A stretch of 64,000 nucleotides of DNA from Candidatus Brocadiia bacterium (GCA_050015075.1 JBEKCB010000018.1:33751-97750), one strand, 5' to 3'; positions 33,768 to 53,091 are shown, counted from the first letter of the stretch. The notes: generated by a model from the sequence alone, not told the origin. A program made the numbers and translations.

Positions 33768-33811
33768 CGCCGCGGCATCGCAATTACCGCACCGGTTAAA
33801 GAGGTTGGGCC

Positions 33812-35836: not shown

Positions 35837-35879
35837 CGCCGCGGCATCGCAACGACCGCGCCGGCTAAAGGGGTTGGAC

Positions 35880-37937
35880 ATGATGAACGATTCTCAGGCG
35901 AACGCCGGCTCGCAGACGGAGATCGTCGCTGGGACGGAATCCAAGCTGGCGGCCGCGTTGCCTATGATCATACCATTTGCGTTCTGCGTCCTTTTGGAAT
36001 TCGTGACTTTGGGCATTTGGGGCGTGGTCTGCCTGCTGCTCATTGGCATTGCCGTAGGGGCCGATGCTCTTTACTCGGCCCGATATAGAATGCCTCGCCG
36101 GGCGCTCCTTGATCGCGAGGGAATGACGTTGCTTCCGCTGGAGACCGGCCGCTTCAGCGGGCGTCCGCTGCATTTTCGCTGGGACGAGGTGCTCGAAGTC
36201 CGGCGCGCATCGCGCTGGAAAGGCTGCGCGTTGCAAGTGCGCCTGGACCGCCCGCGGAAATTCTGGACGTTCAGTCCGCAGCGGCAGGATTTGATCTCGG
36301 TCCCCCGAGGCGTCTGTGCGAACCCGCAGTTTGCCGAGGCGATCCGCGCTCACGTCCCGGCTGAGCGGATCCATGGGGAACTGGCCTGCGACGAACGCCT
36401 TTCCTTATCAGCCCGATACCGGTGGGTCTTGGTTTTAGTGATGCTCGCCTGCGCCGCCATGACCGCAGGGTGCAGCTTCGCTATTATTCGCGGCGAGAAT
36501 TTCCTGGCGGCCCTTTTGGCGGCGGTCATCGCACTGATGATCGGAGCGATGGCCATGGCGTTTTGCGCCAGCCATGCGCCCAGGGCATTCGGACTGATCG
36601 CAGGGATCTTCAATACGTTCGCCTTTCTCTCGCTTACAGGCCCTTTCATGCCATTTTTCTTCCCGAGCGGCCTGGCGCTGATCGCCGCTGGCCTGGGCGC
36701 CGCGGCCGGTACGTTGGCCGGTGCGGCGATCATGGTGATCAAAGGCAGGAAGGCCGGCGGATGGGGCTACGCCGGCGCGACTTTTGTTCTGGCCGCGGCC
36801 GGGTTCTGGTGCGCGTGGACAAGCTTTCACCAGATCAGCGAGATACGCGTGGACGCCGGCAGCCTTGACATTCGCAGCCCGTGGACGCCCAAGGGCGATG
36901 CTTTCTGGATAACGGAGGGCGATTCTTTCGCCTCACCCGATGAGCCGGCCTCGGTGTGCTGGTATTCGCGCGACTTAAAACTGGAACGCCGCGCCGTCCT
37001 GCCCGGCCATGCGCACACTCTCGCGGTCGGCGAGGATGCGGCGCTCCTCTGCGTCAAGGGCCAGCCGGATGACCAGCTCTGGCTCGTCCCCAGGAACGCG
37101 GAACCGCGAGTCGTTGACGAGGCGCCGTACTTCGGGAACGGCGCTGTTATATCGCCCGATTCTCGTCATGCTCTCGTTTCCATTTGGGGTACGGAGCGTG
37201 AACCGGTTGCGTGGAAAGTCTATGACCTTGAGACCGGCGAGGTGGAGACCGTGAACTTCCCCGTGCCGCTGAAAGAGGTTTCCCCGATCACGCTCCGCGA
37301 CGACGGAACGGTCCTATGGCTGTCCGGCTCGCGGCCGCTGGACAAGGGGAATTACCCGACGACCCACCTTACCCCGCTGCCCGAGAGCGGCGAGTTCCCG
37401 CATCCCGGCAAACCGTTCGTCGTCTGGGCGTGGAAGATCAATTCCGTCGATGCGCCCGCGAAGCTCTACGCCGCCGGGACCCAGTGGCTTGAATGGCGCC
37501 GGCCGGACAAGTCCCAGCGGCTTTACGTCTGCCGCGTCTCAGAGAATCCGCCTGCGCGGGTCGAGTGCGTCACGCTCGATTTCGCGCAGTCGCCGCCCGC
37601 CCAGACAACGATATCGCAAGATGAGTTCGAGTTCCACCAGCCCTGGATGCCCCGGACGCGCTCCTTTGACGGACGTTTTGCGTTCGCGGCTGCCGAACGC
37701 GGCTTCTTCGCCCCGGCGTTCATCGTGGACACGAAGACCGGCAGAAAATTCCGCTTGCCGGCTCCGGCAATGCCGTTCGGCCCGTCGTACGTTCATTGGT
37801 CGCCGAGCGAGAACAAATTCTTGATCGAGGTCACGCAATCCAAGCTCCCGGCCGGACTCTGGCGCTGGCGCCGGGACACTGAGAAGACCTTAGAGCCCGC
37901 CACCGTCGTTTACTTCGTGGACATGGACCGTCAATAA
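35880..37937 (+). CDS. Hypothetical membrane protein, paralog 3 of 3
   Basis: Colinear similarity to paralogs 1 and 2; ends VYFVDMDRQ. Confidence 0.8.
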   Translation: MMNDSQANAGSQTEIVAGTESKLAAALPMIIPFAFCVLLEFVTLGIWGVVCLLLIGIAVGADALYSARYRMPRRALLDREGMTLLPLETGRFSGRPLHFRWDEVLEVRRASRWKGCALQVRLDRPRKFWTFSPQRQDLISVPRGVCANPQFAEAIRAHVPAERIHGELACDERLSLSARYRWVLVLVMLACAAMTAGCSFAIIRGENFLAALLAAVIALMIGAMAMAFCASHAPRAFGLIAGIFNTFAFLSLTGPFMPFFFPSGLALIAAGLGAAAGTLAGAAIMVIKGRKAGGWGYAGATFVLAAAGFWCAWTSFHQISEIRVDAGSLDIRSPWTPKGDAFWITEGDSFASPDEPASVCWYSRDLKLERRAVLPGHAHTLAVGEDAALLCVKGQPDDQLWLVPRNAEPRVVDEAPYFGNGAVISPDSRHALVSIWGTEREPVAWKVYDLETGEVETVNFPVPLKEVSPITLRDDGTVLWLSGSRPLDKGNYPTTHLTPLPESGEFPHPGKPFVVWAWKINSVDAPAKLYAAGTQWLEWRRPDKSQRLYVCRVSENPPARVECVTLDFAQSPPAQTTISQDEFEFHQPWMPRTRSFDGRFAFAAAERGFFAPAFIVDTKTGRKFRLPAPAMPFGPSYVHWSPSENKFLIEVTQSKLPAGLWRWRRDTEKTLEPATVVYFVDMDRQ

Positions 37938-40546
37938 CGCCGCGCTTTTCGGGCGAGCAGCCCGCCGAGCGCCGCCAGCCAGCCGGCCGCCGCGATGATG
38001 GAAATCCACAACCCGATCCGGAAGCCTCGCGGCGCGTACTCCATCAGGATCTTGTGATGGCCCGCCTGCAGCGGCACCGCGCGCAGGCAGTAGTTCGCGG
38101 GCATGATCTCGTAGTGCGACTGCGGGCCGGCCTCCAGCGGCCGCGCGCGCCAGCCGGCGGAATAGTCGTCGGTCACCAGCAGGATCGCCGGCCGCTCCGT
38201 CTCCGCTTCGATGACCAGGTAGTCCGTGCCCGATTCCACCACCGCCGCGTAGCCCGGCTTGCTCGCCGGCGCGGGCTCCGGGTCCGGCCGCGACTCGAGG
38301 ATCACCTGGCGGCTCGGATCGAAGCGCACGTCAATCAGCGCGGCGAAGATGTCGTCGCGCTTCGTCAGAAGCACGTAGTCCCGCATCAGCGCGACGTGCG
38401 GCAGGATGTCGTGCACCTCCGCCGGGATGGCCGGCAGAATGCTGTACTGGCAGCGGAGCATTTTGTAAATCGGCAGATACAGGCGGAACGGCAGCGAAGG
38501 CTCCGCCACGTCCGGGTCTATGCCCTGCGTGAACCACATGAAGCGCCCGTAGCGCTCGGGCACCAGCGGGCCATATCCCCAGATGTCGTATCCGCCGGCC
38601 GCCATGACGAAATCGCCCTCGGCCGGCTGCAGGACGCGGAAGTCGCCGGGGTGGCCCTGGAAGAAATCCTTGAGGCCGAACGCTCTCTTCGAGAGATCGA
38701 ACGACGTCCTCAGCGACCCGGCGAAGAGGAGCATCTCGCCCATGCCGAGGACCGCCAGGCAGAGGCCGAGTTTCCGCGGCGATTTGAGGAAGAGCAGGCA
38801 GATTCCGGCGACCACGCACGGGCCGGCCGCCCACAGCAGCGATTGGCCCGCATGGACCTGGGCCTGTCGCGCGAACGCGGGATCGTTGTACAGCCTGTTG
38901 TACATGTGAATTTCCGGCGTGTCGCGGACGTCGCGCATGATCCGCCACCACCAGGGCGCCGGTTCCGTCGGCCCGACCGACACCGCCATTCCCGCGCCGA
39001 GGCCGATCAGCAGCGCCGCCAGTACCAGCGGCGCCGCCGCCAGGCGCACGTTGAACTTCTCCGCGCGCAGGAGCCGGTCCAGCCCGATGCCCGAAAGCAG
39101 CACCAGGAACGCCGTGGCCGGCACGGCGAATTTCGACATGCCGCGGAACCGGTTGAACCCCGGCGCCCAATCGTAAAGGAGGCGGAAAAGCCGCACGTCG
39201 AAAAGCGGCGTGAACCACCACAGAGCCAGCACCGCCGATAGCAGAAGGACCAGCGCCGTCCGGATGAACAGCCGCAGCCGAGGCCTGTCCGCGGCCGCCC
39301 TCCAGAACCTCAGCAGAAGGACCACGCCGATGAGCGAAGGGAAAAGCCCCGTCACCACCGGCGGCAGCCAGGCTCCGAGCGCGAGCACCAGCAGCACCAG
39401 CACCATCGCGAGCGAGAACCGCCGCTTCGCGCGCTCGCCGGCGACGGCCCCGTAAATCGCCAGCAGCAGGCCGGTGAGGCCGATGAACAGGCACATCTCC
39501 CACACGAAGCACCGGCCCCAGTACCGGAAAAAGGCCGTCTCGGTCTCCGGCCCGAAGAAGCCCGGCGCCAGGAAGGTCAGGAAATTCTCCGGCGGCAGCC
39601 AGAACACGCGGGCGAAATCGTACGGCACGCCGTGCCCGCCGCGAAGGCTCTCGCCGGTCGTCTCCATGCCCGAGAGGATCTGCACGGCCGCGATCGCGGC
39701 GCCGACGGCGCATATCGCCGCGAGCCCCGCCAGGATCCGCGCCCGGTTCACGGACCTCACCCAGCAGAGCGCCGAATAGATCGCCGCGGCCACGCCGACG
39801 TGGAAGAGATACTGCGGGTCGCCGCCGAGGGCCATCATCGCAATCGTCAGCGAGCCCAGCAGAATCCATTTGGAGTGCAAAGTGCGGAGTACGGACTCGT
39901 CCGCCGAAGCCTTGGCGAAGGCGGAGTGCGGAATGAAAGAGGCGTTCGCGTCCTCGAAAAGGCCGTCCAGCGTAAGGAACAGCAACGGGATCCACGCCGT
40001 CGAGATCAGGCCGGTCAGGTGCCCCGCCATGATATGGTAATAGTGCTGCCCGCAGAACATCCACAGCACGCCGCAGAACAGGCAGGCCAGGAACCGCAGC
40101 CCGCGCCGGCTCGCCCACAGGTACATGAACAGGCCGCCCAGGAACACGTGCAGCGCCACGCCGGTGTTGATCGCCCGGGCCAGCGGCAGGAAGAGGTACG
40201 GCCAATTCAGCGGATAGAGCAGGCCCGTCTGCGCCCCGCCGAAGAACGGCGCGCCGGAAAAGATGTGCGGGTTCCACAGGGGGAAATTCCCGTGGCGCAA
40301 CTGCGAGAAGCCGAAGTCCCGCCACGGCGCGTATTGCAGGCAGATGTCGGTGCGCGCTTCGGAGACGACCCGGTCGCCGGTCGCGAAGAGCACGTCGCCG
40401 AAGATCACCAGCACAAAGGCCAGCAGGATTGCGGCGGCGAGCCACGTGCGCCGCGGGCGCTCGGCCCGCGCCTCAGCGGCGGCTGCCTCGGCGCGGCCGG
40501 ATTGCGCATCAGGAGCCGTGCCCGGCTTTTTTCTCTTTGAGCTCAT
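37931..40546 (-). CDS. YfhO-family membrane glycosyltransferase (GT-C fold)
   Basis: FPLWNPHIFSGAPF...Q..LLYP, many TMs, FNRFR, C-terminal GWRA...ANY..RAV.L.AG.H.I...Y.P. Confidence 0.85.
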   Translation of the reverse strand: MSSKRKKPGTAPDAQSGRAEAAAAEARAERPRRTWLAAAILLAFVLVIFGDVLFATGDRVVSEARTDICLQYAPWRDFGFSQLRHGNFPLWNPHIFSGAPFFGGAQTGLLYPLNWPYLFLPLARAINTGVALHVFLGGLFMYLWASRRGLRFLACLFCGVLWMFCGQHYYHIMAGHLTGLISTAWIPLLFLTLDGLFEDANASFIPHSAFAKASADESVLRTLHSKWILLGSLTIAMMALGGDPQYLFHVGVAAAIYSALCWVRSVNRARILAGLAAICAVGAAIAAVQILSGMETTGESLRGGHGVPYDFARVFWLPPENFLTFLAPGFFGPETETAFFRYWGRCFVWEMCLFIGLTGLLLAIYGAVAGERAKRRFSLAMVLVLLVLALGAWLPPVVTGLFPSLIGVVLLLRFWRAAADRPRLRLFIRTALVLLLSAVLALWWFTPLFDVRLFRLLYDWAPGFNRFRGMSKFAVPATAFLVLLSGIGLDRLLRAEKFNVRLAAAPLVLAALLIGLGAGMAVSVGPTEPAPWWWRIMRDVRDTPEIHMYNRLYNDPAFARQAQVHAGQSLLWAAGPCVVAGICLLFLKSPRKLGLCLAVLGMGEMLLFAGSLRTSFDLSKRAFGLKDFFQGHPGDFRVLQPAEGDFVMAAGGYDIWGYGPLVPERYGRFMWFTQGIDPDVAEPSLPFRLYLPIYKMLRCQYSILPAIPAEVHDILPHVALMRDYVLLTKRDDIFAALIDVRFDPSRQVILESRPDPEPAPASKPGYAAVVESGTDYLVIEAETERPAILLVTDDYSAGWRARPLEAGPQSHYEIMPANYCLRAVPLQAGHHKILMEYAPRGFRIGLWISIIAAAGWLAALGGLLARKARRY

Positions 40547-40632: not shown

Positions 40633-40676
40633 TTGACGCTCAGCCCGCGACGCGATATAATTCGTTATATGGCGAA
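40633..40676 (+). promoter_or_regulatory. ars promoter and probable ArsR operator
   Basis: TTGACG-17 nt-TATAAT followed by the TTCG-N8-CGAA inverted repeat just upstream of arsR. Confidence 0.65.
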
Positions 40677-40691: not shown

Positions 40692-41054
40692 ATGAAGGAG
40701 TTCATGGCGGTCACGAAGGCGCTGGCCGACGACAACCGGACGCGGGCGCTGATGTGCCTGCGCGACGGCGAACTGTGCGTCTGCCAGATCATCGAGCTGC
40801 TGCAGCTCGCGCCCTCGACGGTCTCGAAGCACTTGAATATCCTGCACCGGGCCGGGCTGCTCGAGTCGCGCAAGGAGGGGCGCTGGATCTATTACCGGCT
40901 CGCCGGCCCGGACGCGCCGGAGGCCGCGCGCGAGGCGCTGCGCTGGGTCCGCCAGTCGCTCGCGAAAGACCCGCAGATCGCCCGCGACGCCGCCCGGCTC
41001 AAAGCGATCCGCAAGATGGACGTGCGGCAACTGTGTGAACGGTATCGTAGTTAG
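40692..41054 (+). CDS. arsR: ArsR/SmtB family repressor
   Basis: KALAD.NR, ELCVC metal box, STVSKHL, GRWIYY. Confidence 0.93.
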   Translation: MKEFMAVTKALADDNRTRALMCLRDGELCVCQIIELLQLAPSTVSKHLNILHRAGLLESRKEGRWIYYRLAGPDAPEAAREALRWVRQSLAKDPQIARDAARLKAIRKMDVRQLCERYRS

Positions 41055-41074
41055 TCGCTGCCGTGGAGAGAGTT

Positions 41075-41941
41075 ATGGCGAAGACGCTCAAGGTCCTGTT
41101 CCTGTGCACGGGCAATTCCTGCCGAAGCCAGATGGCCGAGGGCTGGGCGCGACGCCTCAAAGGCGACGTGATCGAGGCTTGGTCCGCCGGCATCGAAACC
41201 CACGGGCTGAACCCGCTGGCGGTGAAGGCGATGGCCGAGGCCGGAGTGGACATCTCGCGCCAGCGCTCGAAGAGCGTGGCCGAAGTGAAGGACGTGCCTT
41301 TCGACTACGTGGTGACCGTCTGCGACCACGCGCACGAGAGCTGCCCGCTGTTTCCGGGCAAGGCGAAGATCGTCCACGTGGGATTCGACGATCCGCCGCG
41401 CCTCGCCAGGGACGCCAGGACCGAAGAGGAGGCGCTGGGACATTACCGGCGCGTCCGGGATGAGATCCGCGCGTACGTCGAGCGCATTCCGGAGGCATTG
41501 ACCGGCGCGGGCTGGAATCACAAGGCGCGCGTGCTCTTCTTATGTACAGGCAATTCCGCGCGCAGCCAGATGGCCGAGGCCTTCCTGCGCAAGTACGGCG
41601 GAGACCGCTTTGAACCGCACAGCGCGGGGTTGGACCCGCGGCCCATCCACCCATTGGCGGTGCGCGTGATGCAGGAGGCCGGGATAGACATCCGCCGGCA
41701 GCGCTCGAAAAGCGTGCGCGAGTACCTGGGCAAGATGCATTTTCACCACCTGATCGTCGTGTGCGAGCAAGCCGACCGCAACTGTCCGACGACCTTCCCC
41801 GGCATCGGCGGCCGGCTGTTCTGGCCCTTTGAAGACCCCGCCTCATTCGCCGGCGCCGACGACGAAAAGCTGGCCAGGTTCCGTGAAGTCCGCGACCGGA
41901 TCGAGGCTCGCATCAGGGAGTGGATCAAGAGCCAGCCATGA
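41075..41941 (+). CDS. arsC: Tandem two-domain thioredoxin-coupled arsenate reductase (LMW-PTP fold)
   Basis: Two P-loops CTGNSCRS and CTGNSARS, each with a C-X6-CP distal pair and an F.DP motif. Confidence 0.9.
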   Translation: MAKTLKVLFLCTGNSCRSQMAEGWARRLKGDVIEAWSAGIETHGLNPLAVKAMAEAGVDISRQRSKSVAEVKDVPFDYVVTVCDHAHESCPLFPGKAKIVHVGFDDPPRLARDARTEEEALGHYRRVRDEIRAYVERIPEALTGAGWNHKARVLFLCTGNSARSQMAEAFLRKYGGDRFEPHSAGLDPRPIHPLAVRVMQEAGIDIRRQRSKSVREYLGKMHFHHLIVVCEQADRNCPTTFPGIGGRLFWPFEDPASFAGADDEKLARFREVRDRIEARIREWIKSQP

Positions 41942-41965: not shown

Positions 41966-43072
41966 ATGAATGAAAGCCTCGCAAGGCGTTTGTCGTTTCT
42001 CGACCGGTACCTGACGCTCTGGATTTTCCTGGCCATGGCGGCGGGCGTACTGCTGGGATATCTCGCGCCGGGCGTCGGCGACTGGATCGGCTCGCTTCGC
42101 CCCGCCGGCACGCAGACGAGCATCCCCATCGCCGTCGGCCTCATCCTGATGATGTACCCGCCGCTGGCGAAGGTGAAGTACGAGGAACTCGGCGACGTCT
42201 TCCGCAATTACAAGGTGCTGGGCCTGTCGCTGCTCCAGAACTGGGTCATCGGCCCGGTCCTGATGTTCGGCCTGGCCGTGCTGTTCCTGCGCGGGCGGCC
42301 GGAGTTCATGATCGGCCTGATTATGATCGGCCTTGCCCGCTGCATCGCGATGGTGATCGTGTGGAACGACCTGGCCAAAGGGGACGCCGAATACGCCGCC
42401 GGGCTGGTGGCGTTCAACTCCATCTTCCAGGTGTTTTTCTACAGCGTGTATGCATGGTTTTTCATCACCGTCCTGCCGCCGATGCTCGGACTGAAAGGGG
42501 CCGACACCTCGGCCATCACCATCGGGCAGATCGCGCGGAGCGTGTTCATCTACCTGGGCATTCCGTTCCTGGCCGGCATGATCACGCGCGCGGTCCTGGT
42601 GAAGCTCAAGGGCAAGGAGTGGTACCATGGCGCCTTCATTCCGAAGATCAGCCCGATCACGCTGGTGGCGCTGCTGTTCACGATTGTGGTAATGTTCTCC
42701 ATGCAGGGCCGGAAGATTATCGCGCGGCCGCTTGACGTGGTGCTGATCGCCGTGCCGCTGCTGATCTACTTCGTCGTGATGTTCCTGGCGAGCTTCTGGA
42801 TGAGCCGGAAGGTCGGCGCGAATTACGCGCAGAGCGCCACGCTGTCGTTCACGGCGGCCAGCAATAACTTCGAGCTGGCCATCGCGGTGGCCGTCGGGGT
42901 GTTCGGCATCAACCACGGGGCCGCATTCGCCGCGGTCATCGGCCCGCTGGTGGAAGTGCCGGCGCTGATCGGCCTGGTGAATGTCAGCCTGTGGCTCAAG
43001 AGGAAGTGGTTCGCCGGCGAGCCGGCCGAGGTCGCGCCCGGCTGCGCCGTCGGCGGGCGCTCAGCGCAATAA
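41966..43072 (+). CDS. acr3: ACR3-family arsenite efflux transporter
   Basis: [52 protein letters not shown]. Confidence 0.95.
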
Positions 43073-43082
43073 GGAGGCGGCG

Positions 43083-44138
43083 ATGGATGCGAAACTGACG
43101 CGATGTTCGCCTGCAAGAGTCGTCCTGGGCGTGGCGCTGGCGGCCGGCGGCTTGCTCTGGTCCGGGTGCAATCCCGGTGCCGACGTGCAGCAAAAACCTG
43201 TTGTCGTCGGCTGCGCCACTTCTACCGCGGTCAAGTCGCCGAAGGAACTCGCCCTGGCCGGCTTCCTCAGCGGGTTGAAGTTGGAGGGCAAGCCCGTCCT
43301 GATCGAGTTCGGAATGGTCGGCTGCGTGTTGAGCGGACAGGGCCTCGACAACATGATCGCCCTGCAATCGGCCGGCACAGTGCCCGGCCTGGCGTTCGTG
43401 CGCGTGGAAGGCAACCCGGACGACGCAGCCGTCGCGCAGTACTTCAAAGACAAGGCGCCGCCGTTTCCCGTTTACCGGGACCGCCAATCCGCTCTGGCCA
43501 AGGCGCTCAGCGCCACGGCCTATCCCACGTTCCTGCTGGCGGACAAGTTCGGGCACATTCGCTACCAGGGCAATTACCCGCAGGAGAACCTGGTGAAGTG
43601 GGCCCAGGCTCTCGTGGCCGAGAACCAGGACCCGGACGGCAACGCGCCGCAATTCGGCGCAAGGGAGCTCGACGTCGAGAAACTCCTGGCGGACAAACTG
43701 CCCGACCTGAAAGACCGGATCAAGCCCCTGGGCGAGTACAAAGGAAGCGGCGGGCTGGTGCTGCTGTTCGTGGATACCTCCTGTCCTTTCTCGGCGGCCG
43801 CGTTGCGGGAGATGCCGGCGGTCTCCAAGACGCTCGCCGGGCGGAACGTTAACGCAGTCGTCCTGAACACCGGCGATTCGCAGTCCGACGTGCGGGAGTT
43901 CTACGCGCGGAACGACCCTGGCGCGCCGGTCCTTTACGACGTCGGAGCAGCCACGCGCGACGGGTGGAACGTGCATTCGGTTCCGGTCGTCGTTTACATC
44001 AGCCCGGCCGGCAAGGTCGGCTATCAGGGCGAAGCGATCTGGGCCAACATGGGGTCGGCCATCGGGACCTCGCTGGGGCTGGCGCCCGGCGCCATCAAGT
44101 TCACGGCGACCGGCACAGGCTTTGGCTGAGGGAAGTAA
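43083..44138 (+). CDS. Lipoprotein with two thioredoxin-like domains; candidate C-terminal selenocysteine (UGA 44127-44129, otherwise ends 44129)
   Basis: AGGAGG RBS, lipobox LWSGC, GCVLS and SCPFS sites, YPTF and VPVV cis-Pro loops; ends GFG-TGA-GK-TAA with a downstream hairpin. Confidence 0.75.
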
Positions 44139-44249
44139 CGACGTTGCGCCGCCCGTGAGGCGGCGCGGAAGAACGATTCCTGGGGTCCCGGCGGAGGCCC
44201 TTCGCTCCGCTGGAGCATGAAGTGAAGTCGTCGTTGCAGGAGGAAAACC

Positions 44250-44705
44250 ATGAGCAAGAACGGCGAGGCCGCCGTGGCGATGTTCCTGCAGGGGTACAAC
44301 TGCGCGCAATCCGTGCTGGTGAGCTGCGGGCAAGAGTACGGCCTGCCGCGCGAGACGGCGGTGCGGGTGGCGCAGGCGTTCGGCGGCGGCATCGGCCGCA
44401 GCGGCAACGTCTGCGGCGCGGCGACCGGCGCGCTGATGACCGTCGGGCTGAAATGCTCCGTGAAGGACGCGACGGACCTCGCGGCGAAAGCGGAGGCCGG
44501 CCGCATCGCGCAGGAATTCCTCGCGCGCTTCAAGGCGCGCAGCGGATCGCTCCTGTGCCGCGACATCATCGGCTGCGACCTGTCCACGGCGGAAGGCTAC
44601 AAGTACGCCGTCGAGAGCGGCCGCCACCAGACCATCTGCCCCAAGGCCATCCGCGACGCGATCGAGATTATCGAAGATCTCTTGAACCCTGTGGAGAAAC
44701 GTTAG
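44250..44705 (+). CDS. C-GCAxxG-C-C family redox protein
   Basis: YNCAQSV, FGGG.G..G.VCGA.TG, LLCRDI, ICP. Confidence 0.88.
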   Translation: MSKNGEAAVAMFLQGYNCAQSVLVSCGQEYGLPRETAVRVAQAFGGGIGRSGNVCGAATGALMTVGLKCSVKDATDLAAKAEAGRIAQEFLARFKARSGSLLCRDIIGCDLSTAEGYKYAVESGRHQTICPKAIRDAIEIIEDLLNPVEKR

Positions 44706-44815: not shown

Positions 44816-45610
44816 ATGCGACGAAATGACGCGACTCACACGATGGTGAAGAAGGCTTATGCGGCCGTTGCCCGGCGGCAGTCCTCCCGCTGCGGCAGGC
44901 GCGCGGCCTCGTGCTGCGACAAGTCCTGCGACGTGCCGGACCAGCCGGTCCCGGAAGCGGAACTGGGCCTCTCGTGCGGCAACCCGGTGGCCTTCTCGCA
45001 CCTGAAGAAAGGCGACACCGTCCTCGACCTGGGCAGCGGCGCGGGGCGCGACGTGTTCCTGGCCGCGCAGAAAGTCGGCTCGAAGGGAAAGGCCATCGGC
45101 GTGGACATGACGCCGGAGATGCTCCGGCTCGCGCGCCGCAACGCGGAGAAATTCCGCACAGCGGCGCGGCTCGACAATGTGGAGTTCCGCAGGGGGCTCA
45201 TCGAAAAGCTGCCGGTCGCCGACGCGGCCGTGGACGTCGTGATCTCCAACTGCGTCATCAACCTCTCGACGGACAAGCCGCAGGTGTTCCGCGAGGTGCA
45301 CCGCGTGTTGAAGCCCGGCGGGCGGATGATCGTCTCGGACATCGTCCTCGAACGCGCGCTGCCGGCGAAGCTGAAGGCGGACGAACAGCTCTACAGCGCC
45401 TGCATCGCCGGCGCGCTGCTGCGGCGCGACTACCTGGACGCGATCCGCGCGGCCGGCTTCGCGAGCGTGAAGATCCTCTCCGACCGCCGGCGCAACAAGG
45501 CTGACATCGGCGGCGACCCGATCACCGCCGACGTCGCCTCCGATCTCAAAAACGCCGCGTCGTCCGTCACCGTTATGGCCGTGAAACGTGCAGCGTGCTG
45601 CTGTCATTAG
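44816..45610 (+). CDS. arsM: Arsenite S-adenosylmethionine methyltransferase
   Basis: Cys-rich N-terminus, LGLSCGNP, LDLGSGAG.D, GVDMTPEM, DVVISNCVINL, CIAGA. Confidence 0.9.
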   Translation: MRRNDATHTMVKKAYAAVARRQSSRCGRRAASCCDKSCDVPDQPVPEAELGLSCGNPVAFSHLKKGDTVLDLGSGAGRDVFLAAQKVGSKGKAIGVDMTPEMLRLARRNAEKFRTAARLDNVEFRRGLIEKLPVADAAVDVVISNCVINLSTDKPQVFREVHRVLKPGGRMIVSDIVLERALPAKLKADEQLYSACIAGALLRRDYLDAIRAAGFASVKILSDRRRNKADIGGDPITADVASDLKNAASSVTVMAVKRAACCCH

Positions 45611-45643
45611 GAAATCGGGACATTGGGAAATTGGGAGATTGGG
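45607..45643. repeat. Half copy of the octamer repeat after arsM
   Basis: ttaggaaatcgggacattgggaaattgggagattggg. Confidence 0.65.
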
Positions 45644-45698
45644 GCTCTCTGAAAAGCGTAAGCCGTTCCCATGCGGCTCAACCGATGATGGCTGCCAG

Positions 45699-46859
45699 CT
45701 ACTTCGTGTCGATGCCGGCGTCGCGGTCGAAAAGGTTCCAGACCCGTTGGCTGGTCGGTGAACTGATCGTCAAATCGTCCACGCCCATAAGGGCGGTTGC
45801 GCGGCCGGTAGTTCCGTTGGGCAAGGTATAAGTGTAGCCGGTATTCCATCCACTGAAGTTGCTGATGCGGTGGTCCGAATCATCATACCACTTGACGTGG
45901 TTGTCTCCGTAGAGAACGTTATAACCGACCTTGTGCGCCGATCTCGCGAGGCCGCCGCCCGATTTGAAGCCGGTTGGCATGGATGTGTTCCAGGCATAAT
46001 CAAAGGTGTCGGAGCAGATGGCCCGGTCCTGCAGCGCGCGGCGCGTCTTGAACGCCGGTGTCATGAATTGGGGAAATACCAAAGGGGACACTGATTCCAG
46101 CGGCACGACGCACTGGCCGCTGCCATTGTCCAAGCCCGCCGGATCACTTCCGCCTGCGGGATTCGGGTCATAATAAAATGGGGTATCGCGGTAGGCATAG
46201 CTGGAGAGGATCGCAACACCTTTATTGCCGTCAGCCAGCGGCGTCTGGAACAGCCACCTGCCGTCGCCGGCTAGAAACATCTGCGTAAGCATCCCGATGC
46301 CAGGCGAGCCGGCGATCTTCTCCCATGCCGCGGGGTCGTAATGGTATTCGAAGTTGTTATAGTACGTGGTGGCGCTGCTTCGCATCTGAGGGCAATCGAG
46401 CACCCGCACGTCAGCCAGATATTGGCTCGCCACTAGGATTCCAAGCCCCACCGGGACGAAATTCGCCTTCACCTGGGAACCGCCGGTCCGTGGCGAGAGG
46501 TCCTTGACGTTCCACGGGGCGCCGGTGGCTGCGTTGTGCTCTAAGCTGCACGCAACAACCATGTGCCGGCTTGGCACCGGAGGAAGCGCGTAGTTCGTGA
46601 TCGGATTGTGCAGGTCGCCGTTGGGATTCGGACAGACTGTGGCCGTGGTCGAGCCGTAGCACGCCCAACTCGGCAGATAATCGTCGTTACTGGCGCAATA
46701 GATGGCGAGCGTTGCGCCGATATCGTAGAGGTTACTCGCGCATCTCGGGCGACGATCCGGGCTTGAAGCGGTGAAAACCGGAATCAAGATCAGGCAGAGA
46801 AGTGCGACTATGAAGAGAACCACGACCACTTCGACGAGTGTAAGCCCCTGATTTTTCAT
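45699..46859 (-). CDS. Prepilin-type N-methylation / H-X9-DG (DUF1559-like) protein
   Basis: GLTLVEVVVV N-terminus, C.SNL, H...YNVLYGDNHV; real start is ATG 46859 with an AAGGAGG RBS. Confidence 0.85.
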   Translation of the reverse strand: MKNQGLTLVEVVVVLFIVALLCLILIPVFTASSPDRRPRCASNLYDIGATLAIYCASNDDYLPSWACYGSTTATVCPNPNGDLHNPITNYALPPVPSRHMVVACSLEHNAATGAPWNVKDLSPRTGGSQVKANFVPVGLGILVASQYLADVRVLDCPQMRSSATTYYNNFEYHYDPAAWEKIAGSPGIGMLTQMFLAGDGRWLFQTPLADGNKGVAILSSYAYRDTPFYYDPNPAGGSDPAGLDNGSGQCVVPLESVSPLVFPQFMTPAFKTRRALQDRAICSDTFDYAWNTSMPTGFKSGGGLARSAHKVGYNVLYGDNHVKWYDDSDHRISNFSGWNTGYTYTLPNGTTGRATALMGVDDLTISSPTSQRVWNLFDRDAGIDTK

Positions 46860-46870
46860 CGCGCCTCCTT

Positions 46871-48340
46871 TCAGCCGAGTGCGCGATCCCCGGTCGAGCG
46901 GTCGCCCTTCCACTTGCGCCAGATGAGCAGCCCGAGCAGGAAAACCGCCGTCGCGGCGGAGACGAGGAGCGAGAGCTTCAAGACCGTTTCGTACGCCGTC
47001 GCGGGCGCGGCGACGATGCGGACGTCCACCGGATACGGGTAGAGAACTTCCGTCCGCTCGAACAGCACGACGGACCAGCGGACGGAATGGTTGATGATCT
47101 CGAACGCGCTGATGAGGAACGCCGGCACGAGGAGCCACTTCAAGTTTCCCCTCGCGATCAGGCGGTCGAGCGCCTCCTGCATGCGCGCGCAGGAGATCAC
47201 CACCAGCAGCAGGACGGGGATGATCAGGAAGCGCGACGAGGCGCGCTCGGAGTTGACCAGCGGCAGCGGCAGCAGGGCGATGAACGCCCAGAAGTAGCCC
47301 ATCGAGAGCAGCGCCATCAGCCCGAGCGGCCAGTCGAGCGCCTTGTATTCCCCCCCGCGCAGGTCCCAGTCCTTGCGCCAGCGGACGGCGATCCCCAGGA
47401 CAATCAGCATGGCGAGCCCGAGGACCCCGACGTAGTAATCGTATTCCCACCATCCCTGCCGCCCGAAGATGCCGCCGATGCTGAACTCCGAGCGCTCCTT
47501 GATGGCGACGAAGCTTTGGAAGAGGTCGTACAGCGAGCGGTGGCCGCTGATGAAGCGATAGGCGCTCATGTTCCGGTACTCAAGCGCCGAGGGTAGGAAC
47601 CGGAACGCGCCGAGGAGCGCGGTGAAGAGGATCGTCCACGCGACCGTCGCGCGGCTCGGCCGGTGGGCGATCGCCAGCAGCGCCAGGAACATGCAGCACC
47701 AGATCACGATGTGGAACGACCCTTGCAGAAGCATCGCGAGGAGGACGAACGCCATGGCGGCGGCGGCGCCCGGGCCGGTTTTTCCCTCGGCCAGGTTCAG
47801 CGTGATCAGGCAGAAGAACGGCAGGAAGAAGTAGCCGAGAGACCACGCATGCCCGACGCCGACGTGGCTGGTGACGAAGCCGTTGAAGTTGAAAAGCAGG
47901 AACAGCACGGCGGTGGCGAAGGCCGAGAGCCGGTACTTCCGCCGGATCAGCAGGCACCCGATGAACCCGGCCGTGTAGAGCAGCAAAATGTTGCAGAGCG
48001 CGTACTGCCCGACCGGCAGCCAGGCGAGCGCGAGCACCTGCGGCGAGAGCGTCGTCTCCGGGATCGCCAGGAAGTGCGTGGTGTTGAGCACCTGCCGCGA
48101 GATGTGCCACGGCATCGCATGCTGCGTGACGGCCTGCTTGAGGACGTTGCCGTACATGAGCTGCAGCGGCCAGTCCTCGACAGTCATCCGCATCTCGCCC
48201 AGGTCGAGGAAGGCGGCCCAGTGCAGCGCGCCGAGGACGAAGAGGACGGCCAGGAAGGCGGCCTGACAGGCCCGCGCGCCGCGGCTATCGTGCGGCGCGC
48301 AGAAGAGGAACTTGCTGATCCGACTCAGCAGCCGCTGCAT
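46871..48340 (-). CDS. Polytopic membrane protein, possible GT-C glycosyltransferase
   Basis: DW motif, PWH, GH, WWEYD.YVG, ER..SRF motifs; many TMs. Confidence 0.7.
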   Translation of the reverse strand: MQRLLSRISKFLFCAPHDSRGARACQAAFLAVLFVLGALHWAAFLDLGEMRMTVEDWPLQLMYGNVLKQAVTQHAMPWHISRQVLNTTHFLAIPETTLSPQVLALAWLPVGQYALCNILLLYTAGFIGCLLIRRKYRLSAFATAVLFLLFNFNGFVTSHVGVGHAWSLGYFFLPFFCLITLNLAEGKTGPGAAAAMAFVLLAMLLQGSFHIVIWCCMFLALLAIAHRPSRATVAWTILFTALLGAFRFLPSALEYRNMSAYRFISGHRSLYDLFQSFVAIKERSEFSIGGIFGRQGWWEYDYYVGVLGLAMLIVLGIAVRWRKDWDLRGGEYKALDWPLGLMALLSMGYFWAFIALLPLPLVNSERASSRFLIIPVLLLVVISCARMQEALDRLIARGNLKWLLVPAFLISAFEIINHSVRWSVVLFERTEVLYPYPVDVRIVAAPATAYETVLKLSLLVSAATAVFLLGLLIWRKWKGDRSTGDRALG

Positions 48341-48408: not shown

Positions 48409-51339
48409 TCAGCGAGCCGCGCCGGGGTTGAGCTGCAGCGCTTTCTCGGCCTGGCGCTTCATCTCCCTGGCGCGCTCGACCAGCGTCGGACTGGGATTAT
48501 CCTTGATGATGCCGTCACAAGTCTCTATCACTTCGTTCGTCCTGACGCCGTTCTTCAAGGCGTTTTCGGCGCTGATCATGGGGACGTCGTACCGGCAGAG
48601 CTTGTTCTTGACCGGATTGAGCAGTTCCCACTCCTGCTCCTCGTACGCATTGCGCGCCTGATGAGAGAGGGCCTCGTACCGGGCTCGTATTTCCTTCGAG
48701 ACGTCCACGTCGTCGAGCGTCATCAGCGTCTCGATCGCGCAATACCGCGTGGCCGGACCCGGACTCTGGATAAGCCCCACGAGCACCTTGCCCGCCTCGA
48801 ACCTGTCGAACCGCGCGAGGCCGGCGCACACCAGCGCGGCCACCGTCCGCGAGTACCGCTGCTCCGCGGGCGGCCGTGCGCCCGCTTCCGCAAGAGCCGC
48901 CGGCGGCGGAAAGCGGTCGCCCGCGTCGGACTGCATGAGCAGGCGCGCCACGGACGACAGGATCTCGAAGGCCAGCGGCGATTGCTCTTTTTCGATCCCT
49001 TTGCACAGGCTGTAGAGCGTTTCCGGGTCGGGTCCGAGAGACTGGCCGACGAATGCCCGAACATCGTCCTGCAGTTCCTTGAGGTTTCCCTCGGTGACCA
49101 CCGTCACCGCCGCGTCGACCCGCTGGCCGGGCGTACCGCTGCGGATCAGCCACTCGAGCACCGTCTGCGCCGTCTGCGGCGGAAACATCAGGCTGGCGCG
49201 GGGCTGGCGCACCTCGGAGAACGCTTTCACCGCATGCTTGTCAATCAGGGCATTCACTTCCGGCCCGGGCCGGCCCAGGTCAATCAGCGCGCAAGTGGCC
49301 GCCTGGACGGACTCCGGCGAATGGTCGGCCGGCGTCGCGACCCACTGGAGGAAATCCTTCTGGTTCTCCTCCTTCGCCTGGCGCGCCAGGCAGACCATTG
49401 CCGCGTCGCCGAAGGGGCCGCGCAGGGCGAGGAACGGGCCCGCCCATTCCGGGCTGCTGCGTTCTTCCTTGAGGACCGCGACCAGCGCGTCCGCCGAGGG
49501 ATGCGGCAGCCGGTCCGGCGTTGCCGTCACGACCCCGGCGATGGCCGGGCCGCCGCCGAGTCGCAGGATATTCCGGCAAGCGGCGGCGGTCGCCCCCTTG
49601 TCGGCCTTTCCGTCCCAGAGCGTTTGCCAGTCCGCCTCGGGCGCGGCCAGGAGCCCGGCCGCCAGTTTGCCCGCCTCCGCTGCATCGGCGTGCAGGTCCA
49701 GGTCATCATATTGGCAGAAGCCGGAGAGAAGGCAGGCTCGGTCCGGGCCCATCTGGCCGGTGAGATGGATTTCGCGGAGCTGCTTCGGACGGTGGAACGG
49801 CGGCGCCGCGCCGGTTTCGGCGCCCTTGTCGGAGAGCGCCGCGTCCGCCTCGACGGGCCCGCCGATCATCTCGTGCGTCTGGCCGCCGACTTCCCAGACG
49901 ACCCGCACGATCGAGATGCGCAGCCCGCAGGGCAAGGGGTCCGCCTGGGCATCGTCGCTGGGGACCGCGTACCAAATCTCCGCGGCGCCGGGGATGAATT
50001 GCGCGTTTATCGTCAGGCCGCCGCTCACCAGTTTCTCCCAGAGTCTCACCGGCGACGGCGGCGCCATCGCCGGCCCGCGGCCCGCCGCGCGCGGGCCACG
50101 GCGTGAGAAATTCGGCCCCGGTTGGCCTCGCCCCGGCCGGCCCGGCCGAGACGGCATCAGCACCGGCGGAGTCCCGCCCTCGCTGAAATTGAACCTGGCC
50201 CACGCCGGCGCGGTGCTGAAGAAAACCTTGAGGCGGCTGCGCAGCTCTCCGGGATTCGCGGCGCCGGTGGACTGCCCCGCCTCGGCCGGCGCCAGGCCCT
50301 TCTCGCGAAGTATGGCGGCCACGCCCTCATAGACCGTCGCCCGGCTCGCCGAGCGCATCTCTTGAATGCCGGCGTCGGCGTCGTCCTTGTCACGGATGTG
50401 CAGGTTCGCTGCCTCCAGCATCAGGTCGCCGGTCGGGGTGAGGACCGGCATCGGCGGCGCGGCGGCCCCCGCCGAAGCTTCGACCACTTCCACCTCGACG
50501 GGCGCCTTGGCGGCCAGGGCCTGGGCGGCTTCCTTCAGCGCCGCCGGGAACTCAGGCGCCGCCTCCGGCTGCGGCGCAGGCTGGGTCACGAGAATCGGCT
50601 GCGCTCTTACGCGCGGCTTCCTGCTGCTGAAGCCGATGCTGAGCGCGACGATGACGACGATGAGCAGCAGCAGGCCGCCCGCTACGCCGACCAGAGTCCG
50701 CAGCGGCTGCCGCCGTTTGCCGGACCCGCCCGGAGACGCCGGCGCGGCGTCCGAGGCGACGGCATAGCCGGACTTGTCGGCGGCCGTCTTAATGCGGAGT
50801 TCCTTGGCTGCGGCCGACTGGCCGCGGACGAGCGCTTCGGGCGAAGGCGCCCGATAGGCTCCGGCGCCTGTTTTGGCCGCCTGGACCGCCCCGCTGTGCT
50901 CGCGTGCGGCCTCTTCGGCGAGTATCTTGAAGAGAGCGTCCTTGTCCTCCGGCCTGTCTCCGCCCGCCGGCGCGACCGGGGACGGCGCAGCCGGCGGCAC
51001 AGGGCCTTGAGTAACGGCATAGCCGGGCTCGCCGGGGGCTGCTTCGGGCAAGGGCGCAAGCTCGGCTTCGACGTTCGCTTTGGCGGCCCGGGCGACGTCC
51101 GCCTGGCGTTGCTCGCGCGCGGCCTCTTCGGCAAGCGCCCTGAGAAAAGCGTCCTGACCGTCCGGCGCGTCTCCGCTCGCCGGCGCGACCGGCTGAGCGG
51201 GCTCCGCCGCCGTTTGCGGGGCCTTATTCGGAACGCGCATCCGCTTGTCGCAGGTAGCGCACTGAATCAAGAGACCTTCGCAACCGTCCGGAACGCTCAG
51301 AATCTTTCCGCAGCCTTCGCACTTCACGTTGATGGACAT
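48409..51339 (-). CDS. Large hypothetical protein: N-terminal Zn-ribbon, low-complexity linker, TM, helical repeat C-terminus
   Basis: CEGC...CATC, internal LAEEAARE duplication, hydrophobic TM segment. Confidence 0.75.
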   Translation of the reverse strand: MSINVKCEGCGKILSVPDGCEGLLIQCATCDKRMRVPNKAPQTAAEPAQPVAPASGDAPDGQDAFLRALAEEAAREQRQADVARAAKANVEAELAPLPEAAPGEPGYAVTQGPVPPAAPSPVAPAGGDRPEDKDALFKILAEEAAREHSGAVQAAKTGAGAYRAPSPEALVRGQSAAAKELRIKTAADKSGYAVASDAAPASPGGSGKRRQPLRTLVGVAGGLLLLIVVIVALSIGFSSRKPRVRAQPILVTQPAPQPEAAPEFPAALKEAAQALAAKAPVEVEVVEASAGAAAPPMPVLTPTGDLMLEAANLHIRDKDDADAGIQEMRSASRATVYEGVAAILREKGLAPAEAGQSTGAANPGELRSRLKVFFSTAPAWARFNFSEGGTPPVLMPSRPGRPGRGQPGPNFSRRGPRAAGRGPAMAPPSPVRLWEKLVSGGLTINAQFIPGAAEIWYAVPSDDAQADPLPCGLRISIVRVVWEVGGQTHEMIGGPVEADAALSDKGAETGAAPPFHRPKQLREIHLTGQMGPDRACLLSGFCQYDDLDLHADAAEAGKLAAGLLAAPEADWQTLWDGKADKGATAAACRNILRLGGGPAIAGVVTATPDRLPHPSADALVAVLKEERSSPEWAGPFLALRGPFGDAAMVCLARQAKEENQKDFLQWVATPADHSPESVQAATCALIDLGRPGPEVNALIDKHAVKAFSEVRQPRASLMFPPQTAQTVLEWLIRSGTPGQRVDAAVTVVTEGNLKELQDDVRAFVGQSLGPDPETLYSLCKGIEKEQSPLAFEILSSVARLLMQSDAGDRFPPPAALAEAGARPPAEQRYSRTVAALVCAGLARFDRFEAGKVLVGLIQSPGPATRYCAIETLMTLDDVDVSKEIRARYEALSHQARNAYEEQEWELLNPVKNKLCRYDVPMISAENALKNGVRTNEVIETCDGIIKDNPSPTLVERAREMKRQAEKALQLNPGAAR

Positions 51340-51557
51340 TGCCCTCTCCGGTCTCACGCTGGACAGATTTTACCACGTTTGGCGCGAGTTTTCCCAATCT
51401 CGCGGGCTTCTGCAGAAGCGCCGAGCCGCGCCCGCGCGATTGTGCCTTGACTGGCCGTGCTCGCAAGGTAGAATGGAAGTGGTCACGGCTTGCGGGGCGC
51501 GAGCCGGCCGCGAATGGGAATAGTCCGATCCTCCAGATTGCAGAAAAGGCGGCACCG

Positions 51558-52451
51558 ATGCGCAGGCTGTTGCATGCAGGGCTATGGCTGCTGATCGCGG
51601 CGGCGGGTTTCGGGCCCGCGCCGACGGCGCTTGCGGCCGCGGGCGACGAGCCGGTGCAGACGGCGTTTTTTGCGGACGCGTCGGCCGTGGCTGCGGGGCA
51701 GCCGTTCAAGGTCGGCGTGCTCTTCCGCATCGCGCCGGAATGGCATATCTACTGGAAGTATCCCGGCGACGCGGGGCTGGCGACGGAGGTGAAATTCGAA
51801 TTGCCGAAGGGCTTCGTCGCCGGCGAACTCCAGTGGCCGCTGCCGCAGTCGTTCGTCCAGCCGGGCGACGTGGCCGGCTACGGTTACACCGGCGAGGTGC
51901 TGCTGACGGCCCAGATCACACCGCCCAAAGACCTGCGGGTCGGAGAGGAGTTCGCAATCCGCGCCAAGGCGTCGTGGCTCAGTTGTCATGACGTCTGCCG
52001 GCCGGGCCGCGCGGAGCTGAACGCCCGGCTCGCCGTCGCCGCGCAGCGCGAGCCGGCCAACGGGACGCTCTTCGGAAAGTGGGCCGCGCGGCTGCCGCGG
52101 ACGGAGGAGTCGTGGACCGCGGCCAAGCATTTGCGCAGCGTGGTCGCGAACGCCGACACGCTGCCGGCGTCCGCCGAGACGAAAATCGCTATCGTGATCG
52201 TATGGGGGGCGAAGCCCGCGAAGGTCGAGTTCTTCCCGGCGCCGACGGAGGCGGTGCTCACGGACAAGCCGTCGGTGAATACCGCCGAGGACCGGACCGC
52301 GATCGTGATGACGGCGCGCCGCTCCGGCGTCGGCGCGGCGGACCGTCTCGATTGCCTTGTGGTATTCACTCTGGCGGACGGGGAGCGCGGCGGATTTCCG
52401 ATCCAGCTCAATATGCCCGCCGGAGAAGCCGCCGCTCCGTCCACGCCATAG
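51558..52451 (+). CDS. DsbD N-terminal-like (protein-disulfide reductase) domain protein
   Basis: Signal peptide, WHIYWKYPGDAG, WPLP, GY, WLSC...C.PG. Confidence 0.85.
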   Translation: MRRLLHAGLWLLIAAAGFGPAPTALAAAGDEPVQTAFFADASAVAAGQPFKVGVLFRIAPEWHIYWKYPGDAGLATEVKFELPKGFVAGELQWPLPQSFVQPGDVAGYGYTGEVLLTAQITPPKDLRVGEEFAIRAKASWLSCHDVCRPGRAELNARLAVAAQREPANGTLFGKWAARLPRTEESWTAAKHLRSVVANADTLPASAETKIAIVIVWGAKPAKVEFFPAPTEAVLTDKPSVNTAEDRTAIVMTARRSGVGAADRLDCLVVFTLADGERGGFPIQLNMPAGEAAAPSTP

Positions 52452-52467
52452 ACAAGGAGGATGACGC

Positions 52468-53091
52468 TTGAAGACCCTGCACGTCGTCACAGCGGCGGCT
52501 GTCATAGTCGCGGCGCTCGGGATTTACGGTTTGCGGGCGCAGGCGCAGAACGGTCCGGCGTCCGCGCCGGTCCGGAAGCCCGCGCCGGATTTCACGCTGA
52601 CGGACCAGAAGGGCAACACCGTCAAGCTTTCCGATTTCAAGGGCAAGGTCGTCGTGCTGGAGTGGACGAACCCGGACTGCCCGTTCGTCCAGCGGCACTA
52701 CAAGGCCGGGACGATGGCGGCCATGGCGAAGTCCTACGCGGCCAGGAGCGTGGTCTGGCTGGCGATCAACTCGACCTATTACATGAACCGCGAGAAAGAT
52801 GCGGAGTGGGCGGAAAAGCAGCAGATCGCCTATCCGGTCCTCGGCGATCACGATGGAAAGGTCGGCCAGGCGTACGGCGCAAAGACTTCCCCGCACATGT
52901 TCGTCATTGACGCGAACGGGAATATCGCCTACCAGGGCGCGATTGACAACGACGCGAGCGGGGAGAAAAAAGAGGGCGTGGTGAACTACGTCGCGCAGGC
53001 ACTCAACGCGGTCCTCGCCGGGACGCCGGTCGCCATCACCGAGACGAAGTCGTACGGGTGCTCCGTGAAATACCCGCCGGAGCAGACGTAG
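52468..53091 (+). CDS. Exported thioredoxin/AhpC-TSA family protein
   Basis: APDFTL.D, VVLEW.NPDCPFV, YGAKTSPHMF, Y.GAID, YGCSVKY. Confidence 0.9.
   Translation: MKTLHVVTAAAVIVAALGIYGLRAQAQNGPASAPVRKPAPDFTLTDQKGNTVKLSDFKGKVVVLEWTNPDCPFVQRHYKAGTMAAMAKSYAARSVVWLAINSTYYMNREKDAEWAEKQQIAYPVLGDHDGKVGQAYGAKTSPHMFVIDANGNIAYQGAIDNDASGEKKEGVVNYVAQALNAVLAGTPVAITETKSYGCSVKYPPEQT

Follow-up and report, generated by a model that had tools for sequence, protein, structure and literature searches.

A putative C-terminal selenocysteine in a two-domain redoxin encoded in an arsenic gene cluster of a Candidatus Brocadiia bacterium

The arsenic gene cluster and the redoxin gene

The window, by which we mean the whole stretch of 64,000 nucleotides that was analysed, carries a co-directional run of arsR, a double arsC, acr3, a redoxin gene, the gene for a C-GCAxxG-C-C protein and arsM on the plus strand. 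The run starts with an ArsR/SmtB-family regulator (40692..41054, NF033788 above cut-off), upstream of which a sigma-70-like promoter was called at 40633..40661 (+) from a consensus match alone (11 of 12 positions). The regulator is followed by ArsC (41063..41941), a tandem two-domain thioredoxin-type arsenate reductase which TIGR02691 matches in two stretches and which ends at an ordinary TGA stop, and by the arsenite efflux transporter Acr3 (41966..43072, TIGR00832), whose stop overlaps the ribosome binding site of the redoxin gene. Downstream of the redoxin gene we found the C-GCAxxG-C-C redox protein (44250..44705, TIGR01909) and the arsenite methyltransferase ArsM (44816..45610, NF008823 above cut-off), both in the Cys form. 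No terminator-like site was detected inside the arsR-to-arsM run, and the one promoter-like site is that upstream of arsR.

The redoxin gene (43083..44138, +) opens with an ATG at 43083, preceded by the ribosome binding site AAGGAGG at 43071-43077, and 348 codons stay open up to an in-frame TGA at 44127..44129 (codon 349). The TGA is followed by GGG AAG TAA (44130..44138, +), that is a Gly-Lys tail and the proposed true stop. An earlier note on this DNA had read the end of the gene as ATGTGFG-TGA-GGG-AAG-TAA and we can confirm this reading. If UGA349 encodes selenocysteine (Sec), the two-domain protein has 351 amino acids, ends ...ATGTGFG-U-GK and thus carries a G-U-G-K-stop tail.

About 6 kb downstream and on the same strand the window encodes a DsbD N-terminal-domain protein and then a redoxin of the 2ywi/2cvb type (51339-53091). 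The same pair lies near the copy in L001, the closest homologous locus, which is 94% identical to the window, labelled Candidatus Brocadiia and syntenic here; the pair is a possible electron path for envelope redoxins. L001, elsewhere syntenic, lacks the window blocks 45610-46900 and 31700-37950. The missing DNA includes a pilin-type N-methylation ORF (47453-45699, minus strand) directly after arsM, and the region with two paralogous membrane-protein genes at 33812-37937. The window ArsC is a fusion of two arsenate-reductase domains, the second with the P-loop C-T-G-N-S-A-R; the tandem form was also seen in L001, and ArsC is single-domain in the loci L014 and L021. A search of a plasmid collection returned no match.

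Conservation of the in-frame TGA

A scan of GTDB returned 22 loci, labelled as 17 Planctomycetota MAGs, 2 WOR-3, 2 Anaerolineales and 1 unclassified. One of them, L019, ends before the site and hence 21 loci plus the window give 22 readable copies. The MAG of L003 also contains L019, a second but partial copy with 96% identity. The copy in L014 is frameshifted in domain 2 (about 10400-10640) and that in L021 spans a run of Ns (10554-10653), with the 3' end readable in both.

TGA occupies the codon-349 site in all 22 readable copies, and a check for TAA or TAG stops at this site came up empty. The tail after the TGA has two codons (U-x-x-stop) in 18 copies and three (U-x-x-x-stop) in the other four. 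Its first codon encodes Gly in 17/22 copies (GGC 10, GGG 7) and its second Lys in 21/22; the Lys codon is AAG in 21/22 copies, a constancy that could reflect a constraint on the RNA. The true stop, on the other hand, is free to vary (TAA 10, TGA 7, TAG 5), and its variation only a few bases away argues against simple inheritance as the reason for the constant TGA. The preceding residue is not always Gly either, as Thr or Val was observed in three of the 22 loci with the TGA still kept.

The background consisted of 183 long ORFs that a crude codon filter had selected in these loci and in the window. More of them end in TGA than in either of the other stops (95/183). A second stop within four codons was found in 22/22 family copies compared to 14 of the 95 background TGA ORFs. 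With well-supported clades collapsed into 15 lineages, the chance of an all-TGA site is ∼5e-5, or 0.013 if a TGA rate of 75% is assumed, and these values are optimistic because the copies share ancestry.

At the protein level we collected 193 homologues, namely 52 (one of which is a fragment of the window's own protein) and 141 new ones among the best 150 matches. For 139 of them the alignment comes to no more than 12 positions from the end of the profile; 137 of the 139 terminate between −2 and +1 residues from the UGA site, and 134 have Gly as the last residue. Among the matches listed none of the 139 database proteins has a Cys at the UGA site and no full-length Cys orthologue occurs, and a further search for Cys-ended forms added six new proteins, all ending in Gly. 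The sole Cys form of the tail among the homologues is P0122, which lies outside the 139, consists of domain 1 only, ends G-Y-C-G-K and is known as a protein sequence only. Since only two or three residues follow the UGA, conservation of the read-through at the protein level is thin. A distant two-domain group (E about 1e-15 to 1e-26), made up of P0144, P0156, P0157, P0161, P0162 and some 15 further proteins, may be a second Sec-tailed subfamily; most sequences of this group end in G-A-G or G-G where our family has the UGA site.

For new selenoprotein families Haft and Gwadz ask for at least ten examples, TGA in 100% of copies, similarity that continues through a U aligned with Cys members, and selA, selB, selC and selD in the host, according to the consulted part of their preprint (bioRxiv 10.1101/2022.07.06.499078). 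Here there are at least ten candidate examples, with 22 DNA copies from ∼15 lineages and 139 proteins that extend to the site.

A SECIS-like hairpin beyond the true stop

A hairpin lies just beyond the true stop (44144..44168, +). Its core is as the earlier note had claimed: 8 bp at 44146-44166 with a CGUGA loop from 44154, starting 24 nt after the UGA; with G-U pairs the stem grows to 10 bp. The likeness in spacing to a hairpin at 56.8 kb was also borne out, as the loop there starts 23 nt after a UGA. The folding energy gave z-scores of −2.96 for a tight cut of 33 nt, −1.94 for 46 nt and −1.25 for 64 nt. The energy of the single copy is thus only moderately unusual, and the case against chance rests on the homologues.

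The bacterial SECIS rule as given in the consulted part of PMC13188914 calls for a loop of 3-9 nt with a G in the first two loop positions, lying 16-37 nt after the UGA, and for an energy of at most −7.5 kcal/mol. We applied it through our own script version and not through bSECISearch. The rule was passed by 21/22 family copies compared to only 7 of the 95 background TGA ORFs; the single failing copy (L012) fails on the G rule. In all 22 copies the loop lies 18-24 nt after the UGA. Based on a MAFFT alignment we detected compensatory changes in six of the seven stem pairs (24 cells, a value reached in 0/500 shuffles). The stem is paired in 93% of cases compared to 19-72% in slid controls, and RNAalifold independently returned five of the covarying pairs.

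We considered two other origins of the hairpin and rejected both, the repeat origin as far as the window goes. The check on a repeat origin showed that the hairpin is single-copy in the window (one match at ≤3 mismatches), where the next match of a covariance model scores 18.4 bits compared to 32.4. An intrinsic terminator was discarded as there is no U-tract after the hairpin and a terminator scan does not call it.

Domains of the protein

The first part of the protein (43083..43169, +) resembles a signal peptide with a lipobox-like W-S-G-C29, and the motif suggests a lipid anchor. The Cys29 column holds a Cys in 59/65 aligned rows and a regular-expression lipobox was found in 54/75 members. 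The Trp at −3 of the window copy's lipobox is atypical, and some close homologues such as P0006 and P0010 lack the Cys. The earlier note had described the protein as exported, a proposal that the signal and lipobox motif alone supports.

Thioredoxin-fold domain 1 (43239..43622, +) contains Cys81 (43323-43325) in C-x-L-S, and this Cys is present in 51/63 aligned rows. Thioredoxin-fold domain 2 (43665..44087, +) is TlpA/ResA/2ywi-like and contains Cys234 (43782-43784) in C-P-F-S as well as Pro301 (43983-43985), a conserved Pro that faces the active site. Neither Cys234 nor Pro301 varies in any of the 75 rows, and Pro235 occurs in 70 of them. That both domains are of the CxxS type, as had been proposed, holds for the window copy (C81-V-L-S and C234-P-F-S), but the Ser of domain 2 varies in the family: the fourth motif residue, position 237, is S in 45, A in 22, C in 6 and T in 2 of the 75 rows. 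We regard domain 2 as the core because relatives with domain 2 alone exist.

Pfam assigned AhpC-TSA, Redoxin and Thioredoxin_2 to the redoxin, NCBIfam a sub-threshold ResA match (NF002854) alone, and the ESM Atlas generic TlpA/redoxin clusters alone. The AlphaFold2 model of the full protein shows two thioredoxin-fold domains and a disordered N-terminus with a mean pLDDT of 84, residues 1-48 being of low confidence. A Foldseek search with the redoxin model ranked ResA/TlpA structures first.

Predicted position of the Sec tail

The position of the tail was studied in a model of domain 2 that was built with the Sec as Cys. This model has a mean pLDDT of 91, and its value of 84 over residues 341-350 compares with 67 over 341-348 in the full-protein model, an uncontrolled comparison as constructs and alignments differ. 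The domain-2 model shows new beta-bridges at Ser299-Val300, just before Pro301, and at Sec349-Gly350. If these two bridges pair with each other, the predicted tail lies in the substrate groove near the active Cys. Thioredoxins bind their substrate in the groove beside the active Cys.

Out of 50 listed structures, four align the tail end (2ywi, 2ywo, 3u5r and 2cvb), all with a C-terminal Cys. Their alignments have Z-scores of 15.4-16.9 and an rmsd of 2.8-3.7 over 148-153 residues at 18-20% identity. An end-point count, which assumes gap-free alignments and matching numbering and starts from models that may echo solved structures, places the C-terminal Cys opposite Sec349 in three of the four entries, with a shift of two residues in 2ywi. 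The family profile matches 2ywi at E 7.7e-9. Like the redoxin, proteins of this AhpC-TSA-family type have a single C-P-[FY] Cys in an AhpC-TSA fold, and a C-terminal arm returns with a second Cys as the modelled arm of the redoxin would with its Sec. In 2ywi this C-terminal Cys is treated as the resolving Cys in the consulted part of PMC3091736. The redoxin differs in having Sec for Cys, a tail that stops two residues later and two tandem domains, and its G-U-G-K-stop shows no sequence match to the G-C-[STN]-I-K tail of the 2ywi type. We dropped a link between 2cvb and TTHA1422, for which the part of PMC10318464 consulted gave no confirmation.

The window has its own member of this 2ywi/2cvb type, G-C-[STN]-I-K family in the gene at 52468. 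The CPF motif and the C-terminal YGCSVK that had been ascribed to it are both present. The further proposal that the UGA falls where this protein has its second Cys is favoured by the predicted structure, but sequence profiles never align the tail: with the 52468 redoxin as well as with 2ywi the aligned region ends before it. Since the top Z-scores are tied and the profiles do not align the tails, we treat the likeness as an analogy of position and not as proven homology. On the strength of the models, Cys234 and Sec349 are likely to form a redox pair.

Genomic neighbourhoods

ORF calling in the loci gave 236 ORFs; of the non-family ones outside L001, the 118 nearest were scanned with NCBIfam and Pfam, and the window's ars proteins were also searched against all loci. 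The gene lies in an ars cluster in 7/22 loci (L001, L010, L013, L014, L018, L020 and L021), beside sel genes in five and beside neither in the other ten, although several of the contigs are short.

The ars-linked loci all have acr3 in the same cluster. Their gene orders differ and two types of Acr3 occur, that of L018 being only 31% identical to the window's. The set amounts to about four or five independent cases, as L001 is a near-duplicate of the window, a single MAG is the source of both L010 and L013, and L018 is closely similar to L020. In a tree of 21 domain-2 sequences (L019 and L021 were left out and L014 is half-filled) the ars label needs four changes, and 24 of 500 shuffles were as low. 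The starred branches force only one change, so a single origin of the ars link is not excluded by the tree.

The sel neighbours are selB and selD in L002, selC and selD in L003, selD, selC and selB in both L005 and L007, and selC and selB in L016. A tRNA-Sec adjoins the gene in 4/22 loci (ARAGORN on all 22, Rfam on the eight loci examined). These tRNAs score as tRNA-Sec with 76-79 bits against a threshold of 47 and sit with selD. No selA was seen among the scanned locus ORFs and no sel genes in the flanks of the seven ars-linked loci; the window itself gave no selB or selD match, no tRNA-Sec and no Rfam match. The SelD proteins in L002 (3684-5327), L003 (2709-994), L005 (4143-5846) and L007 (4924-6639) are, in 4/4 cases, Cys forms that carry a Cys-rich extension at the N-terminus and, fused to the C-terminus, a CMD/AhpD-like CxxC domain.

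The earlier note had seen in this gene a link between selenium and arsenic handling. The ars context is real in the window and recurs in 7/22 loci, but the family does not reside mainly in ars clusters: no ars gene was seen in 15/22 loci, and the family is thus not defined by an arsenic context.

Other candidate selenoproteins

The window contains a second probable selenoprotein, a lipoprotein-like ORF at 56388-57017 (+) with an in-frame TGA at 56805. This TGA aligns with a Cys in P0198 and P0199, the similarity continues downstream of it, and four closer homologues are cut at the site. The hairpin loop follows 23 nt after the UGA and no NCBIfam family was assigned. Because of this TGA/Cys pair on the same contig, the host probably recodes UGA.

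Near the sel clusters we observed a further unlisted family with the motif FEYG-TGA-GGxCx[YH]SWRVP, apparently exported. Its members lie in L003 (7383-6667 and 8746-7412, both −), L005 (3298-3954 and a gene ending at 12306, both +) and L007 (3958-4620, +). They have 41-42 conserved residues after the TGA and, in 5/5 cases, a hairpin loop 20-21 nt downstream; four were tested against NCBIfam and none matched. A relative without the TGA occurs in L002 (2156-3523). In L010 a CxxC thioredoxin lipoprotein (46-633, +) ends TGA-Gly-Lys-stop with a hairpin 19 nt downstream, and the ars cluster there consists of this thioredoxin, an ArsP-type permease, an MTH895/ArsE protein, the family gene and Acr3. 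The Sec tail may be a portable module.

We also tried a covariance model of the hairpin only as a general SECIS detector and rejected it. At E ≤ 10 it failed to recover one of its own training hairpins, that of L003, and likewise missed the hairpins at 56.8 kb, in the FEYG-U family and after the L010 thioredoxin gene.

Comparison with known selenoproteins

None of the NCBIfam selenoprotein models (release 20.0) matches the read-through protein at E ≤ 1. The best sequence family for 75/75 members is ResA/TlpA (NF002854), which shares the fold and the N-terminal anchor. The redoxin differs from it in scoring 45 bits against a cut-off of 170, in having CxxS/A and not CxxC in most members, and in its extra Sec arm. 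NF041054 matches 9/75 members with a best E of 1.7e-6, and three read-through or relative sequences scored 13-43 bits compared to its cut-off of 300.

Thioredoxin-fold Sec proteins are known as such. The catalogue in PMC13188914, in the part consulted, holds Prx-like, redoxin, TlpA (UGC-containing) and WAxxUGC selenoproteins, with the motifs UxxC, UxxU, UxxS and UGC, and reports Sec-ArsM, Sec arsenate reductases, SaoC and near-terminal Sec as already known. The closest resemblance in design is to UXX-star families 1 and 2 (NF041114, NF041211), which the same source describes as having a Sec near the C-terminus in a Gly-rich context, along with the related fusions HUGP/GUXX-star and methyltransferase/UXPK-star. 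Both the redoxin (G-F-G-U) and UXX-star family 2 (GxGU) have the Sec near the C-terminus in a Gly-rich stretch, and a link to metals or metalloids is suggested for UXX-star and likewise for the redoxin. UXX-star family 1, however, is listed as distant glutaredoxin-like, whereas the redoxin is a putatively exported tandem TlpA-like protein of ∼350 aa.

The 'star' in UXX-star denotes the stop codon, which puts the Sec third from the C-terminus; 18/22 copies of our family have it there. The UXX-star models (NF041114, NF041211, NF045501 and NF047649) gave no match at E ≤ 1 for the read-through protein, domain 2 or two locus copies, and none of the 75 members matches at E ≤ 0.001.

Among the 119 families of the 2026 catalogue (PMC13188914), in the part consulted, none has the architecture of the redoxin and no entry is a two-domain lipoprotein ending G-U-x-K. 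A full-text literature search, in which other matches were judged by title and abstract opening, found no description of the family. The comparison literature further comprised the consulted parts of PMC12013277, PMC13326102 (the BSepDB paper) and bioRxiv 10.1101/2022.07.06.499078. Haft and Tolstoy 2025, Deng 2026 or their supplements could list the family. We consider it well supported that this is an apparently uncatalogued selenoprotein family whose C-terminal U-x-x-stop design resembles the published UXX-star.

Discussion

The hidden C-terminal Sec that the earlier note had proposed is upheld by the comparison of the copies, with TGA in 22/22, the Gly-Lys tail, a covarying hairpin and sel genes in 5/22 loci. 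Judged by these sequences, UGA349 is very probably recoded as Sec. The family would then be an exported and usually lipid-anchored selenoprotein, found mainly in MAGs labelled Planctomycetota, in which SelB and tRNA-Sec would read UGA349 under the guidance of the hairpin just past the true stop. We suppose that the tail is flexible and bends back into the groove of the second thioredoxin domain, where Sec349 and the invariant Cys234 could form a selenenyl-sulfide/selenol-thiol redox centre that cycles between the oxidised and reduced states, a Sec version of the arrangement in redoxins of the 2cvb/3u5r/2ywi type. Domain 1 with Cys81, dispensable in some relatives, might serve as an electron relay or a substrate-binding module, and the protein as a whole as an envelope thiol-disulfide or metalloid-thiol oxidoreductase. 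In some lineages it may have been recruited into ars clusters against thiol damage from exported As(III) species. Taken as a whole, an exported Sec-redoxin with a Cys234-Sec349 centre that was recruited to some ars clusters is the reading we find fairly likely.

The recurrence of the ars context suggests that the protein may handle damage to thiols, or adducts of As(III), in the envelope, and for the ars-linked copies we rate an arsenic-related role at just under an even chance. The family's role is broader than arsenic, since sel and unrelated contexts occur. Alternatively, the Sec-redoxin could serve redox chemistry in the envelope or selenium handling in general, and owe its place in ars clusters to incidental co-regulation or hitch-hiking. 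This rival shares the Sec reading, differs in function alone and has a somewhat smaller chance of being right. It would account for the ten loci with neither ars nor sel genes and the five in sel clusters, for the near-duplicates in the ars-linked set and for the Cys forms of the window's other ars enzymes. For a gene with one or few copies, however, we would expect acr3 to adjoin it by chance in far fewer than 7/22 loci; moreover the gene orders differ, the L018 Acr3 is only 31% identical to the window's, and the L010 ars cluster has a second protein, the CxxC thioredoxin, with TGA-Gly-Lys-stop and a hairpin.

The main mechanistic rival holds that Sec349 and Cys234, perhaps with Cys81, bind As(III) or Se species, so that the protein acts as a scavenger or chaperone and the Sec is not a catalytic partner. 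Both recurrent neighbourhoods, ars and sel, concern thiophilic metalloids, and neither domain is normally CxxC (Cys237 in 6/75). The Sec of UXX-star, SaoB and SaoC may be a metal ligand according to the consulted part of the 2026 review (PMC13188914). In its fold, its invariant Cys and Pro and the modelled position of its tail, in contrast, the protein matches thiol-disulfide oxidoreductases, and domain 2 has no third conserved Cys. Sites for As(III) usually require three thiols in close proximity. We therefore consider metalloid binding as the main function unlikely, and prefer the Cys234-Sec349 redox centre.

The two readings without Sec fit the data poorly. The TGA could be a plain stop, with the protein ending at a perhaps functional Gly348 and the hairpin stabilising or processing the mRNA; 134/139 proteins do end in Gly, TGA is the commonest background stop and no full-length Cys orthologue appears among the matches listed. 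A plain stop leaves unexplained why TGA is kept in 22/22 copies, even after Thr or Val in three loci, while the stop two or three codons on varies. It equally leaves aside the Gly-Lys codons, the fixed spacing of 18-24 nt, the adjacent tRNA-Sec, selB and selD, and the fact that P0122 ends in Cys-Gly-Lys, and is in our view very improbable. Even less probable is another residue at the UGA, be it Trp or Gly by an altered code or Cys through SelB-like recoding: SECIS-dependent Cys insertion at UGA is described in a few bacteria, but neighbouring genes end normally at TGA (arsC; 95/183 ORFs), the redoxin gene uses TGG for Trp four times, and the adjacent tRNAs are scored as tRNA-Sec and sit with selD.

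Discovery methods lean on Cys homologues, as described in the consulted parts of PMC12013277, bioRxiv 10.1101/2022.07.06.499078 and PMC13188914. The family may be absent from NCBIfam 20.0 and from the catalogue of 119 families because it has almost no Cys homologues and only two residues after the UGA. All the database copies that extend to the site, those sourced from NCBI included, end immediately ahead of the residue that is probably the reactive one.

With UGA349 read as Sec, the family provides a candidate extracytoplasmic selenoenzyme at a point where arsenic-resistance and Sec-synthesis clusters meet. A bolder proposal, which we put forward as speculative and improbable as a whole, is that of a nearly Sec-obligate envelope selenoenzyme against arsenic, whose tail captures or reduces As(III)-thiol adducts after export by Acr3 and is itself a portable module. 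If true, bacteria would possess a dedicated selenium-for-arsenic step of detoxification. The G-U-G-K tail and the post-stop SECIS would then have been added to thioredoxin folds that are not related to one another, such as the L010 thioredoxin and P0122, and searches that rely on Cys orthologues would overlook a whole class of these tails. The two further unlisted Sec families and the Sec-tailed thioredoxin suggest that the selenoproteomes of these Planctomycetota are under-read.
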